The notes beneath the pieces are model-generated. The model was not told where the DNA came from, did no database searches, and worked only from the letters and a program-made list of their open reading frames with translations. This document shows, piece by piece, positions 13,379 through 17,712 of a DNA stretch of 64,000 nucleotides. Location: assembly GCA_963795085.1 (NCBI GenBank), contig CAWCFX010000006.1, forward strand, positions 160,001 to 224,000, given 5' to 3'. Origin of the DNA: an uncultured Gemmatimonadales bacterium. Its GTDB lineage: Bacteria; Gemmatimonadota; Gemmatimonadetes; Gemmatimonadales; GWC2-71-9. The position numbers were made by a program, and so were the translations under genes. Within the stretch, counting starts at the first letter, position 1, and every line of letters begins with the position of its first letter.

Positions 13379-14959
13379 TCAGCGGGCTCCCAGCGAGTTG
13401 GTGAACGCGTCATAGACGTCGGCCCGCCACCAGTGCCGGGATTGTTCCATGATCCCGTAGGCTTCTTCCATCGGCATGGCCGCCCGGTAACTGCGGGTGG
13501 TGGTCAGCGCGTCAAAAACATCCGCGATGCAGATGACCTGGGCGTGGAGCGGGATCTCGTCGCCCTTGAGCCGGTCCGGATAGCCGGTACCGTCGTAACG
13601 CTCGTGGTGGGAACGGATGATCGGCTTGATGTCCCAGGGAAATTCCACCGCCGCCAGCAGTTCGAGGCCCCACACCGGGTGCATCTTGACGATATCAAAC
13701 TCTTCGTTGGTAAGCCGGCCCGGCTTGTTGAGGATTTCGTGGGGCACCTTGACCTTGCCAAGATCGTGGAGATAGGCGCCGAGCCGAAGAGTGGTCTGTT
13801 CCTCCTCGCTGAGTCCGAGGGCCTGCGCCACCTTGAGGCCGTACTCCGCCACCCGGCCGCAGTGGCCGAAGGTGTACCGGTCCGACGATTCGATCGACTG
13901 GCCCCACTCGGCGACGACCTTGAGAAACGTCCCTTCCAGCTCCGAGACCTTGCCGCGAATATCCACCAGGTCCACCCGGGCGTTCAGGCGGTGGAAGAGT
14001 CGGTGGGAAGTGTTCAGGAGCCGCAGCGAATCCTGGTTTCGCCCCATCATCTGGAGCAGCAGGGCCATTTCGCGGGAGGCCTCGGCCTCGCTCAGGACCG
14101 AGCCGGTCTCCACCGCGAGGTCGATCGCCGCCTTGAGACGTGACTCGGCCACGGCGTGATGACCGGTTTCCCGGTAGACCGTACCCAGCACCTTGTAGGC
14201 ATCGGCCTTGTCGAGCCGGGCGCCCAGTTCGTCGAATATGCGGAGCGCCGCCTCGGCGCTGTCGCGGGCCTTTTCATAGCGCTGCCGGGCCAGGTGGACT
14301 TCCGCGTGGTTGAGAAGACAGAGTCCCTGAAGATGAATATCGCCCATGGTGGAGGCGCGGGCGTGGCTGGCCACGAAGTACCGGTCCGCTTCTTCCCACT
14401 GTTCCTGGTCGGCGCTGATCATGCCCAGGTTGTGGTACGCAATGGCGCAGCCCCGTTCGTCACCGGCATGCACGAATGCCTGGAGGGAATCGAGGTAGTG
14501 CTGCCGGGCCTGGTCGAGATCTCCCTCGACGTTGGCCAGGATCCCGAGGTTCTGGAGGATCCGGCCCTGCAGTTCTTCAGAATCCCGGCCCAGTTGCAGT
14601 CCGGCCGTAAACCGTTCCCGGGCGGAGTTCATGTCCCCCGCCTCAAACTCGAAGCCGGCCAGCGCGTTCAGCGCTTCGGCAGCCAGCACATGTAGTTCAG
14701 CTTGCTGCGCGGATTCGTAGCTCTGCTGGCAGAGGGCTCGGGCCCGGGCAGGTTCGCTCCGGTGATGGCAGATGACCCCGAGCCGCCGGCGGGCTTCAAT
14801 GCCCGCCGACCCCCGCCCGGCCGAGTCTATGGCTCGCTCATAGCAAGCGGCCGCCAGGTCCAGCTTGCCCTGGCGTTCAAAGCCCCGGCCACTCCGCAGG
14901 TCATTCTCTGCGGCGTCGAGAGCGGGTTCCGGAGCGGGCCGGGCCTCGGGCTTGGTCAT
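13379..14959 (-). CDS. TPR-repeat + HD-GYP domain protein (putative cyclic-dinucleotide phosphodiesterase)
   Basis: About 330 aa of TPR-like repeats (NLG motifs), then HDLGK, HHERYDGTGYP, ADVFDAL. Confidence 0.9.
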   Translation of the reverse strand: MTKPEARPAPEPALDAAENDLRSGRGFERQGKLDLAAACYERAIDSAGRGSAGIEARRRLGVICHHRSEPARARALCQQSYESAQQAELHVLAAEALNALAGFEFEAGDMNSARERFTAGLQLGRDSEELQGRILQNLGILANVEGDLDQARQHYLDSLQAFVHAGDERGCAIAYHNLGMISADQEQWEEADRYFVASHARASTMGDIHLQGLCLLNHAEVHLARQRYEKARDSAEAALRIFDELGARLDKADAYKVLGTVYRETGHHAVAESRLKAAIDLAVETGSVLSEAEASREMALLLQMMGRNQDSLRLLNTSHRLFHRLNARVDLVDIRGKVSELEGTFLKVVAEWGQSIESSDRYTFGHCGRVAEYGLKVAQALGLSEEEQTTLRLGAYLHDLGKVKVPHEILNKPGRLTNEEFDIVKMHPVWGLELLAAVEFPWDIKPIIRSHHERYDGTGYPDRLKGDEIPLHAQVICIADVFDALTTTRSYRAAMPMEEAYGIMEQSRHWWRADVYDAFTNSLGAR

Positions 14960-14972
14960 GCCTTGCTCTGTG

Positions 14973-14987
14973 GCAAGCCGGGCGCCA
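14973..14987 (-). promoter_or_regulatory. Sigma54 -24/-12 promoter candidate for the TPR-HD-GYP gene
   Basis: Minus strand TGGCGCCCGGCTTGC (GG-N10-GC), 13 nt upstream of the ATG. Confidence 0.6.
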
Positions 14988-15112
14988 ATGTGGTCCGCCC
15001 CTTGGGAAGCAGCCTATATTGCTTGTTGACAACGGATTACGGCTACGATTAGAGATTCCAGGCCTCCCTACCCTCCTGGGTTCTTGCCGCAATCTTCCAT
15101 GAAAAGTGGCGA

Positions 15113-15149
15113 TTCAAATAAATACGGCGGCTCCCTGGGGAGCCGCCGT
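15113..15149 (-). terminator. Intrinsic terminator downstream of lipoprotein 15171-15695
   Basis: Stem ACGGCGGCTCC/GGAGCCGCCGT followed on the minus strand by ATTTATTT. Confidence 0.7.
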
Positions 15150-15170
15150 TTGCCCGCCGGTCCGCGCCGA

Positions 15171-15695
15171 CTACCAGGCTACCGCGTACCGCGAGAAGTG
15201 CTCGAGATTGGTGCTGACTTTCTTGCTCAGTTTGTCGTCCACCGACGGCAGCAGCTGCAATATCCGGAGGCCGTCCGTCGTGTAGGCGACCCGGCGCGGC
15301 AGAATCGAAGCCGGCAGCGGGCAGTTGTCGTAGTTCAGGGTGAGCACGGCCGGTTTACCGGCGTTAAATACCAGGCCCTCAGGCTGTAACTGGACGGAAT
15401 TAGTCGTGTCGGCTTCCATGCTCATCGTAATGAGCGTCGAGCGGTTCAGCGCTCCCGCAGGAATCACCAGCTTGTGTTTGCCGACCTTGAGGGTTCCCCC
15501 GGCCTGGTTCACCCGCAGCGATATGGTCGCCGCCGGCGTGGCGGAGCACTTCAGCAGTTTGGAGAGGCCCAGCGCCCCAAACTCCGGCCCGGCCAGGGTG
15601 GGGTCCGGCGCCGCGGCCCGATCAATACCACAACTGACAGTCACCGCCACCAGGGCGGCCACAAACATGAGTCCTACCAGTCGTCTCGCCTTCAT
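15171..15695 (-). CDS. Lipoprotein with ZU5-like domain, C-terminal HFSRYAVAW
   Basis: AAGGAG SD, lipobox TVS-C, GGTLKVGKHKLVIPAGAL ZU5-like start, terminal HFS motif. Confidence 0.75.
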   Translation of the reverse strand: MKARRLVGLMFVAALVAVTVSCGIDRAAAPDPTLAGPEFGALGLSKLLKCSATPAATISLRVNQAGGTLKVGKHKLVIPAGALNRSTLITMSMEADTTNSVQLQPEGLVFNAGKPAVLTLNYDNCPLPASILPRRVAYTTDGLRILQLLPSVDDKLSKKVSTNLEHFSRYAVAW

Positions 15696-15712
15696 TCTTG
15701 CCGCTCCTTGGA

Positions 15713-15780
15713 AGTGAATGTCATGCGCCTATACCGCTGCCTCTTGGCTGCCGACCCGGATGCGGGTGGACGCGGAAAAC
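15713..15780 (-). promoter_or_regulatory. Conserved structured 5' leader motif, copy 1
   Basis: UUUCCGCGUCC-ACCCG/CGGGU-CGGCA-GCC/GGC-AGCGGUA..GGCGCA....AUUCACU. Homologous to 16578-16648. Confidence 0.55.
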
Positions 15781-15797
15781 TTGCAGGCACCATAGGG

Positions 15798-15813
15798 TGC
15801 AAAGCGGATGCCA
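15798..15813 (-). promoter_or_regulatory. Sigma54 -24/-12 promoter candidate
   Basis: Minus strand TGGCATCCGCTTTGCA, near the consensus TGGCAC-N5-TTGCA. Confidence 0.75.
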
Positions 15814-16018
15814 GATGGAGTGCAACTCCGCGCAGTACCCCGCTCCGCCGGGGTGTGCCCACAACATCTCGTGAGCCAACCACTTACCGGCGGCCGGGAG
15901 GCGCCTGAAGGCGCGGCTCAATCCCGCCTGCGAACGGCCTTCGCTTTCACTCTCCCACAACGCGAAACGTCGCCGCCACTGGCGACGACGTTTCGAGATT
16001 TGAGGAGTGGCGCGCGGA

Positions 16019-16564
16019 TCAATAGGCCACGGCGTACCGGGAGAAATGTTCCAGCGGTGCGGTCACTTTCTTCGCCAGAATATTGTCCACCGACCGCAGG
16101 ATCTCGAGCAGCTGCAGCCGTTCGGTGGTGTACACGATCTTCTTGGGAAGCAGGCGCGCCACCAATGAGCAGTTCGCATAGCTCATCGTCAGGCTCGCGG
16201 GCTTCCCGCTTGCGAACCGCAGGCCCTCCGGCAGCAGGCGAACCGAGTTCACGCTGTCCAGGACGATCTCGGCGGTGATGACCGTGTTTTTCGTCAGGGC
16301 GCCCGGCGGGATCACCAGCGTGTGCGGGCCAACCGTGATCGTCCCACCCCGGATCCCGATGGTCTTGCTGCTGATCGCCGGGCGGAGGGGCGAGCAGCTG
16401 AGCAGGGTGGCCAGGAGATTCGTCCCGAGTAGTCCGTCCCGCTGTTCCAGCGCCGGGATTCCGGACAGGTCCGTTGGCCCCTGTGAATCACCCGCAGAGC
16501 AGCTGATGCCGGCCACCAGGAAGAGGCCCAGGAACATCATCGAGATAAGGCGCGAGCGTTTCAT
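16019..16564 (-). CDS. Lipoprotein with ZU5-like domain, C-terminal HFSRYAVAY (paralog of 15171-15695)
   Basis: Lipobox GIS-C, GGTITVGPHTLVIPPGAL, NSVRLLPEGL.F..GKPA, LEHFSRYAVAY. Confidence 0.75.
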   Translation of the reverse strand: MKRSRLISMMFLGLFLVAGISCSAGDSQGPTDLSGIPALEQRDGLLGTNLLATLLSCSPLRPAISSKTIGIRGGTITVGPHTLVIPPGALTKNTVITAEIVLDSVNSVRLLPEGLRFASGKPASLTMSYANCSLVARLLPKKIVYTTERLQLLEILRSVDNILAKKVTAPLEHFSRYAVAY

Positions 16565-16577
16565 CGGACTGCCTCGG

Positions 16578-16648
16578 AGTGAATAGTGTGCGCCGGTACC
16601 GCGGCCGCTTTGGCCGCCGGCCCCAGACATCGGGGCGGACGCGGAAAC
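16578..16648 (-). promoter_or_regulatory. Conserved structured 5' leader motif, copy 2
   Basis: UUUCCGCGUCC-GCCCC/GGGGC-CGGCG-GCC/GGC-CGCGGUA..GGCGCA....AUUCACU. Confidence 0.55.
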
Positions 16649-16664
16649 TGCCGTGCCGATGTAG

Positions 16665-16680
16665 AGCAAGTTGGGGCCCA
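16665..16680 (-). promoter_or_regulatory. Sigma54 -24/-12 promoter candidate (weaker)
   Basis: Minus strand TGGGCCCCAACTTGCT (GG-N10-GC). Distance to the leader motif is similar to copy 1. Confidence 0.5.
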
Positions 16681-16761
16681 GCAGATTGGAATAACGACGC
16701 ACTATTTGACAGCACAATTATATACCCACCCTAACTCTCAGTTCGATAAGTATATAGGCGA

Positions 16762-16786
16762 TATATCAGATATTGCATCTGACATA
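16762..16786. promoter_or_regulatory. AT-rich inverted repeat, candidate activator/operator site
   Basis: TATATCAGAT-N5-ATCTGACATA (one mismatch) inside an AT-rich stretch between divergent genes. Confidence 0.45.
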
Positions 16787-16929
16787 ATATTGAACAACCA
16801 ACGAGGCTGGTCCCGGACCATGGCCAGTGCCATGTTGCTGGGCCTGCCCCCCGTTCGTTGCGGGAGAGCCACAGTCTGCACCCGGCCAGGGAGGCCGCTA
16901 TACTTCCAGTTCCTCTTTCATCCCCGGCC

Positions 16930-17712
16930 ATGAACTTCCCAAGCCTTCTCCTGGAAACCGCCGGCGGCATCGCCCGCCTGACGATCAACCGCCCCGACAA
17001 GCTGAACGCCCTGAACGACCAGGTCATCGCCGACCTGGGCCGGGCCATGGACCAGATAGACACGGACCCAGCCATCCGGGGCGTCATTGTGACCGGGAGC
17101 GGGACGAAAGCCTTTGTCGCGGGCGCGGACATCCCGGAGCTGTCCCGCCAGGGCCCCTTCGACGGCAAGGCTCGGGCGCTGGTCGGCCAGCGGGTCTTTC
17201 GCCGGATCGAACGCTCGGGGAAGCCGGTGATCGCCGCCATCAACGGGTTTGCCCTCGGCGGGGGCTGCGAGCTCGCCATGGCCTGCCACATCCGGATTGC
17301 GGCCGAGTCGGCGAAGTTCGGCCAGCCGGAAGCGAAGCTGGGCATCGCCCCGGGGTATGGCGGCACCGTGCGGCTCCCCCGGCTGGTGGGGAAAGGCCGG
17401 GCCCTGGAGCTCCTCCTGACCGGGGTGATGATTGACGCGAACGAGGCCTACCGGATTGGACTGGTGAACCGGGTGGTTCCGGGCGAGCATCTGCTGGACG
17501 CGGCGGAAACGATGATGCGGACGATCCTGGAGAACGGCCCGCTCGCGGTCAGGGTCTGCATCGAAGCGGTGGACTCGGCGTTGGAAACCACTCTCGACGA
17601 AGGCCTCCTGCTGGAAGCCAATTACTTCGGTCTGCTGGCCTCGACGACCGACATGCGGGAAGGCATGGCCGCCTTTCTCGAGAAGCGCAAGGCGGCCTTT
17701 ACCGGCCACTGA
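16930..17712 (+). CDS. Enoyl-CoA hydratase/crotonase
   Basis: INRPDKLNAL, AFVAGADI, NGFALGGGCELAMAC, GQPE. Confidence 0.93.
   Translation: MNFPSLLLETAGGIARLTINRPDKLNALNDQVIADLGRAMDQIDTDPAIRGVIVTGSGTKAFVAGADIPELSRQGPFDGKARALVGQRVFRRIERSGKPVIAAINGFALGGGCELAMACHIRIAAESAKFGQPEAKLGIAPGYGGTVRLPRLVGKGRALELLLTGVMIDANEAYRIGLVNRVVPGEHLLDAAETMMRTILENGPLAVRVCIEAVDSALETTLDEGLLLEANYFGLLASTTDMREGMAAFLEKRKAAFTGH

Follow-up and report, generated by a model that had tools for sequence, protein, structure and literature searches.

Several kinds of structured leader RNA offer points of comparison for the element described here, a leader RNA that occurs twice on the minus strand of a 64,000-nucleotide (nt) stretch of DNA (the window) from contig CAWCFX010000006.1 of an uncultured Gemmatimonadales bacterium, each time ahead of a lipoprotein gene. 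Riboswitches for cyclic diguanosine monophosphate (c-di-GMP) are structured 5' leaders that often stand before genes of cyclic-di-nucleotide turnover (GGDEF, EAL, and HD-GYP). Two families are distinguished, c-di-GMP-I (GEMM-I, RF01051) and c-di-GMP-II (RF01786). Purine and thiamine pyrophosphate (TPP) riboswitches are three-way-junction aptamers composed of a closing helix and two hairpins, with a conserved junction and variable stems, and autoregulatory ribosomal-protein leaders imitate the rRNA sites of a protein that their own operon encodes. The Gemmatimonadota, to which our locus belongs, are abundant soil bacteria, and to our knowledge almost no RNA regulation has been described in them. 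Finally, the nadA motif is reported as an orphan-type riboswitch candidate of narrow range, discovered by comparative genomics and linked to one gene family (PMC6859854).

Like c-di-GMP-I, the new motif is built on a three-helix junction, but it has no conserved tetraloop-receptor or pseudoknot signature, leaves the loops of its hairpins P2 and P3 free, and serves one operon type. With the purine and TPP riboswitches it shares the closing helix, the two hairpins, the conserved junction nucleotides, and the variable stems; it differs from them in having no conserved loop-loop interaction, two junction strands of zero length, and no similarity in sequence or model. It also resembles the ribosomal-protein leaders as a single-operon, lineage-restricted structured leader beside a Shine-Dalgarno (SD) sequence, although no RNA-binding protein is evident in its operon. 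The nadA motif, too, is reported to have a narrow phylogenetic range, to lie only upstream of one gene family, and to have been found by comparative genomics. Its gene, however, pointed to the ligand, whereas ours is a lipoprotein gene of obscure role followed by a phosphodiesterase gene, and the two architectures differ.

Judging by comparative evidence, we conclude that the two leaders belong to a genuine family of structured leader RNAs at mRNA 5' ends, which is new as judged by Rfam and the literature searched and is a riboswitch candidate. What makes it notable is the combination of an invariant three-way junction backed by covariation, putative sigma54 promoters, and an operon that pairs an exported lipoprotein of predicted ZU5 fold with a TPR-HD-GYP phosphodiesterase.

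A repeated leader and its distribution

The minus strand of the window carries lipoprotein gene B, its tandem paralog gene A, and a gene for a protein with TPR and HD-GYP domains, in that order (Table 1). Both lipoprotein genes are preceded by the leader. The two copies, whose sequences are exactly those reported in an initial annotation of this DNA, show 85% identity across 71 aligned columns. Both the promoter-distal flanking DNA and the first codons of the two units are far less similar than the leader blocks. Since proteins A and B share 45% identity (82/181), the leader is better conserved than the coding sequence.

The initial annotation considered the repeated block an unrecognised RNA, and the comparison with Rfam 15 agrees. 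None of its 4227 models matched at gathering score across the window, and at E<=10 with permissive filters the region 15000-17500 gave three chance-level matches, none of them on either leader. Under the same permissive settings (E<=10), the family models of c-di-GMP-I and c-di-GMP-II gave no match on the leaders. Neither a full-text literature search nor the main text of any of PMC5737381, PMC11109978, and bioRxiv 10.64898/2026.10.21.760802 yielded a motif linked to Gemmatimonads, HD-GYP, sigma54, or lipoproteins; the supplements to these papers may list further motifs.

A covariance model built from the two window copies alone (R1) detected a third copy in the same genome (G000:C1:282867-282937, E 2e-10), which lies behind a sigma54 box and before a third paralogous lipoprotein gene encoding 224 amino acids (aa). 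When the top few of the weak R1 matches in relatives (L018-L045) were checked by context, only L017 stood upstream of a lipoprotein homolog. Together with the third copy, the occurrence of the motif in dozens of genomes, in the same context, indicates that the similarity between the copies is more than chance. The idea that the block is just a relic of tandem duplication without further homologs, which the initial annotation had put forward as the outcome that would speak against it, thus does not apply.

How widely the motif occurs was assessed by pattern scans and by a second, later covariance model (R2). A strict pattern scan of one genome per species (185,579 species) returned 19 stretches. 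Twelve of these belong to Gemmatimonadales or Gemmatimonadota, each placed just upstream of a lipoprotein homolog, whereas none of the seven from other phyla is accompanied by one. With R2, 13 of 151 genomes sampled from the bacterium's own family (f1) gave a match, nine of which were judged true by context. An order-wide sample gave matches in 8 of 61 genomes of f1, in 0 of 62 genomes of family f2, and in 0 of 27 genomes of family f3. Genus g24 proved the richest source, with matches in 66 of 103 genomes. (The f1 and g24 tallies count the unpublished genomes G206 and G315, whose sequences were not used.) Twenty additional g24 matches, including all of the weakest, were fetched, and 19 of them stand before a lipoprotein homolog; the remaining one (L232) is false.

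In total, the motif is present in more than 70 genomes and, in the covariance-model searches, is confined to one Gemmatimonadales family. A lipoprotein homolog lies downstream on the same strand of 65 of the 67 distinct leaders (E<=9e-21), and in the other two the downstream open reading frame (ORF) is shortened or frame-broken but keeps its signal peptide start. A scan of metagenomes gave 43 stretches, for the most part by chance. Seven are real, and they include two extra members of the C-G type discussed below and one C-to-U change (giving G-U). Among the matches listed by a relaxed second pattern scan, four of seven from Gemmatimonads are real and no new variant type appeared.

Several candidates were set aside. 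The listed matches of a loose first pattern scan in GC-rich genomes are due to chance, and so are L118/L187, L098, L076, and L084, which fall in coding DNA and have neither a sigma54 box nor a lipoprotein gene. The weak R2 matches L187-L190 and L232 were ruled out by gene context.

Covariation and the helix that closes the junction

In the hairpins P2 and P3, sequence and length have drifted freely but pairing has been retained; P2 ranges from about 15 to more than 70 nt and is branched in some members. The compensatory differences that the initial annotation saw between the two copies in the first hairpin (A-U to G-C and G-C to C-G) are present, and the wider family extends them. When 15 leaders are aligned by MAFFT without regard to structure, 87.6% of the cells are paired, compared with 27-57% when the partners are slid by one to three columns, and both sides have changed in 11-12 of 18 pairs. 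A model-fitted alignment of 67 distinct leaders gives 91.8% paired cells (25-52% when slid) and changes on both sides in 14 of 21 pairs, amounting to 197 cells. In a shuffle control (n=500, five measures), 0 of 500 shuffles scored as high on any measure. Numerous G-U pairs fit the minus strand, which is therefore taken to be the transcribed one. While the helices drift, some 30 positions stay invariant across genera; the loops of P2 and P3 vary freely and have no conserved contacts with each other.

Some points temper this picture. The leaders are kin, so that shuffle controls overstate significance, and alignments A6 and A9 were fitted to the model and lean towards it (the R1-fitted alignments A3 and A4 were discarded because they aligned too poorly). 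Moreover, the folding energy of the window copies is ordinary, with z values of -0.39 and +0.91 relative to shuffles.

The three-way-junction layout drawn in the initial annotation is borne out by the wider family, but its closing helix is less so. Near-invariant segments allow three mutually exclusive pairings. The one first proposed, S1, joins CCGC(G) with (C)GCGG. S2 pairs GCG-bulge-AC with GUCGC (GCGUC with GGCGC in the window genome) to form helix P1', and adds a GCG/CGC base under P3. S3 pairs CGCGUACC with GGUA-Y-CG-U-CG and is often the computed minimum-energy fold. Over the 67 leaders, S1 shows no compensatory change and 4 unpaired cells; its CCGC/GCGG closure is invariant and broken in one member. 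S3 was rejected as closing helix, with no compensatory change and 17 unpaired cells. S2, on the other hand, varies in a paired manner: one P1' pair is A-U in 61 leaders and C-G in 4, and one pair of the P3 base is G-C in 66 and A-U in 1. The GCGUC/GGCGC complementarity is thus indeed present as initially annotated, yet not as a mere alternative, for it is this pairing that covaries. P3 as first drawn does pair but is too short, and needs the GCG...CGC extension, which RNAalifold predicted independently.

The C-G state at P1' is shared by all three copies of the window genome and by a g24 lineage unrelated to it (L235 and two metagenome contigs), and G002, a relative of the same genus, shows C.U, an intermediate state. 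Between GCG and AC, the variable base acts like a bulge (U in 47 leaders, A in 5, C in 1, absent in 5, and UCC in 5-6). In the bulge-less members L186, L227, L228, and L231, GCGAC and GUCGC form a perfect helix, and in L186 the CC of S1 has changed to AC. When either pairing is enforced, the predicted energies differ by 1.0 kcal/mol on average, with S2 lower in 58 of 66 leaders.

Critically speaking, the case for S2 stands on few events, namely the C-G swap in two lineages and the A-U swap in one sequence, and it has exceptions: A.C in L233, A.A at the P3 base of the window's own copy 1, and the C.U of G002. We favour S2 as the closing helix on the strength of these few events. Thus CCGC/GCGG, the helix that readers would naturally draw, is not the one backed by evolution. 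Two C's 5' of P1' are nevertheless kept in 65 of 66 leaders and the GG of GGUAYC in all of them, though both are unpaired in S2. These CC and GG dinucleotides could form a two-base-pair pseudoknot or could belong to S1 in an alternative state.

Proposed function and rival explanations

A sigma54-type box (at least 8 of 11 consensus positions) precedes 60 of 66 leaders. Its GG and GC elements are spaced as in TGGCAC-N5-TTGCW (type GG-N10-GC/TTGC), and its distance to the model start varies from 8 to 24 nt. In the window, such boxes were indeed found where the initial annotation had placed them, 18-20 nt ahead of the copies: TGGCATccgctTTGCA ends 20 nt and TGGGCCccaacTTGCT 18 nt before UUUCC. 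The genome encodes rpoN (PF04552, 215 bits, a 543-aa open frame on contig C2). An SD sequence follows the motif by 10-25 nt, and a consensus scan of the region found no terminator after the motif. In this way a conserved, covariation-backed structured domain lies in the 5' untranslated region, between sigma54 box and SD/start, as is generic for riboswitches.

In most genomes, the comparison of loci indicates that the leader heads a lipoprotein-HD-GYP operon, given that at most a few tens of nucleotides, and no promoter box, separate the two genes. In 50 of 69 loci, a TPR-HD-GYP homolog adjoins the lipoprotein gene (E<=8e-25), and most of the others have flanks too short to tell. Across 49 distinct loci other than that of the window, the median distance from the lipoprotein stop to the first HD-GYP residue in the alignment is 34 nt. 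Where the alignment starts at residue 2-9 (35 loci), the gap between lipoprotein stop and HD-GYP gene is 7-54 nt. A sigma54 box between the two genes was seen in 0 of the 36 loci examined.

We propose the following mechanism. Each leader would be transcribed from a sigma54-type promoter, with the motif beginning about 5-20 nt from the predicted mRNA 5' end, and would fold into a three-helix junction consisting of P1' (GCG-variable bulge-AC with GUCGC), P2 of free sequence and length, and a free P3 on an invariant GCG/CGC base. Conservation extends to the junction strand GGUAYC of six bases, the pair of C's immediately 5' of P1', and a tail (A/C)ACC. In our view, the invariant junction most likely binds a ligand, and binding would select one of two near-isoenergetic pairings, CCGCG/CGCGG or GCG-AC/GUCGC. 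Given the nearby SD sequence and the lack of a terminator, control in cis would presumably act on translation initiation or mRNA fate. The unit under control would be the gene of the ZU5-fold lipoprotein, probably co-transcribed in most genomes with that of the TPR-HD-GYP phosphodiesterase. Among ligands we favour a small molecule; as a first guess, a nucleotide second messenger or a product of its breakdown would be reasonable. Overall, we consider the chances evenly balanced that the leader is a ligand-responsive element of the riboswitch type.

The initial annotation had suggested a nucleotide messenger in view of an adjoining HD-GYP gene, and that gene is present (Table 1). The guess is better based than plain adjacency would make it, since in the 49 other loci no more than a few tens of bases separate the lipoprotein gene from HD-GYP. 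The operons served encode the ZU5-like lipoprotein with or without TPR-HD-GYP, and the latter points to cyclic dinucleotides by association alone. The specific claim of a new riboswitch class for c-di-GMP, 3'3'-cyclic GMP-AMP (3'3'-cGAMP), or linear pGpG is, in our estimation, quite unlikely. If it were true, sigma54-transcribed lipoprotein-HD-GYP operons would receive direct feedback from the substrate or product of their phosphodiesterase, and the leader would be a third, structurally unrelated RNA solution to cyclic-dinucleotide sensing. A small-molecule sensor of any kind would constitute a new riboswitch class, one that may tie RNA sensing to cyclic-dinucleotide turnover, while a protein-bound leader would add a new post-transcriptional layer to a sigma54 regulon. 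Either way, the leader provides a handle on an operon found in many uncultured genomes.

Several observations weigh against a riboswitch. Partition-function folding revealed no clear expression platform: the predicted unpaired probability of the SD sequence is 0.29 with S1 enforced and 0.26 with S2, and the SD sequence is predicted to pair chiefly with a short stretch immediately upstream. A candidate anti-SD dependent on the conformer, the 5' UUCC, was rejected because the same folding shows no such difference. In addition, the motif serves just one type of operon within one family of bacteria, a restriction that is commoner for protein-binding leaders than for metabolite riboswitches.

The leader could accordingly be read as an operator, whose invariant junction is bound by a trans-acting RNA-binding protein that represses or activates translation, be it the operon's own cytoplasmic TPR-HD-GYP protein, in autoregulation like that of ribosomal-protein leaders, or a global regulator. 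The exclusive occurrence of the motif with one operon type in one family agrees with this, as do its tight linkage to the TPR-HD-GYP gene, the lack of an evident expression platform, and the small junction, which offers six unpaired conserved bases only and no conserved loop-loop contacts. The candidates for the binding protein fit less well. The TPR-HD-GYP protein shows only TPR and HD/HD-GYP families in Pfam and NCBIfam, nothing that points to RNA binding, and the three leaders of the window genome precede lipoprotein genes that do not share a transcript with HD-GYP. Being exported, the lipoprotein itself cannot autoregulate. We rate this explanation as somewhat unlikely, albeit a serious contender to the riboswitch reading.

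Alternatively, the leader may sense nothing and act as a constitutive structural element on the sigma54 transcript, whether by shielding its 5' end from RNases, by serving as a processing site, or by fixing a low translation rate. Its place at the extreme 5' end of the predicted transcript would suit such a role, and so would an SD sequence that is predicted to be largely paired under either enforced conformer. A plain stabilising hairpin, however, would not need some 30 positions that are invariant across genera, and three exclusive pairings of similar energy suggest a switch; we therefore hold this explanation to be rather unlikely.

Lastly, it is highly improbable that the element is not an RNA but a DNA-level operator or promoter-downstream element, a relic of duplication or gene conversion, or an N-terminal ORF extension, for although the window copies belong to tandem paralogs, the core bases are invariant as expected of a DNA site, and copy 2 is spanned by a 232-aa ORF (16019-16717) whose frame opens with a TTG at 16717, this is already contradicted by stems that stay paired through changes on both sides and strand-specific G-U pairs, by hairpin lengths of about 15 to more than 70 nt that do not vary in threes, by a promoter-box distance that varies, by the sigma54 box lying inside the long ORF, and by the recurrence of the motif in more than 70 genomes.

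Genes and features of the locus

Table 1. Features on the minus strand of the window, in order of transcription
Feature	Position	Strand	Remarks
Sigma54-type -24/-12 box TGGGCCccaacTTGCT	16665..16680	-	Upstream unit, gene B; by sequence reading
Leader RNA, copy 2	16578..16648	-	Before gene B; tail to AUUCACU; P1' GCGUC 16642-16638 with GGCGC 16594-16590; P2 hairpin 16636-16620; P3 including GCG/CGC extension 16617-16601; junction strand GGUACC 16600-16595; 97 bits with R1, 56.7 bits with R2
Lipoprotein B	16019..16564	-	181 aa; signal peptide, lipobox ISCS, ZU5-like domain (predicted), C-terminus HFSRYAVAY
Sigma54-type box TGGCATccgctTTGCA	15798..15813	-	Downstream unit, gene A; 10/11 consensus positions
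Leader RNA, copy 1	15713..15779	-	Before gene A; P1' GCGUC 15773-15769 with GGCGC 15729-15725; P2 hairpin 15767-15754; P3 15748-15739; junction strand GGUAUA 15735-15730; 89.1 bits with R1, 54.4 bits with R2
Lipoprotein A	15171..15695	-	174 aa; paralog of B
Terminator-like hairpin	15124..15149	-	11 pairs (9 G-C), then AUUUAUUUGA; 22 nt past gene A stop; from a consensus scan alone, which yielded 3 sites in the region vs 2.6 expected
Third sigma54-type box TGGCGCccggcTTGCC	14972..14987	-	9/11 consensus positions; ends 12 nt before the HD-GYP ATG
TPR + HD-GYP protein	13379..14959	-	526 aa; HHExxDGxGYP signature present as HHERYDGTGYP in translation; Pfam HD_5 E 5e-38, HD E 5.5e-24

Lipoproteins A and B match no Pfam family at E<=0.01 and no NCBIfam family, and the Pfam ZU5 model does not match them either. 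The predicted structure of lipoprotein B (predicted local distance difference test score, pLDDT, 82.8) has the ZU5 domains of ankyrin, UNC5b, and ZO-1 as its top Foldseek matches (E 4e-5 to 4e-3, probability 1.0, template-modeling (TM) score about 0.5), and according to this model the lipoprotein has a ZU5-like beta-sandwich fold. GAIN appears as a weak additional Foldseek match. Across the family, the C-terminus is nearly invariant, HFSRYAVA(Y/W/F), and there are two invariant cysteines besides that of the lipobox. In some eukaryotic ZU5-UPA proteins, HFS serves as the motif for autoproteolysis. In the third paralog of the window genome (G000:C1:282958-283632, plus strand), lipobox and ZU5-like domain are separated by some 50 inserted residues, with Lys, Asn, and Arg abundant among them; A and B lack this insert.

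Compared with the other loci, the window arrangement is a derived one. Both of its lipoprotein units have a promoter and a leader to themselves, and after them come the hairpin, a 211-nt gap, and the extra box TGGCGCccggcTTGCC. The terminator-like hairpin parts gene A from the HD-GYP gene in the window genome only. With 12 nt between TGGCGCccggcTTGCC and the annotated HD-GYP ATG, an mRNA from this box would have almost no leader, unless translation truly starts further downstream.

The promoter type extends beyond the motif. Distant lipoprotein homologs in other Gemmatimonadales (L003, L004, and L007) have sigma54-type boxes but different leaders without the motif, from which it seems that sigma54 control is older than the RNA. 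The leader of L004 still ends in ...UAUCACC ahead of its SD sequence.

Tandem leader-lipoprotein units, 1-1.7 kb apart, also occur in L204 (G322:C14) and in L193/L197 (G223:C121), and duplication of the whole promoter-leader-gene unit recurs. In the latter genome, the second leader (L197) lies 190 nt before HD-GYP, over a lipoprotein remnant of 53 codons that retains the signal peptide, has an internal deletion, and carries the C-terminal HFS motif out of frame. As the HD-GYP gene comes directly after this remnant, the leader has been kept with HD-GYP despite decay of the lipoprotein. Frame-broken lipoprotein ORFs, which may be assembly errors or pseudogenes and are interrupted just past the signal peptide or in mid-gene, are found in metagenome-assembled genomes, namely at L168 (998-1570), L172, and L183.

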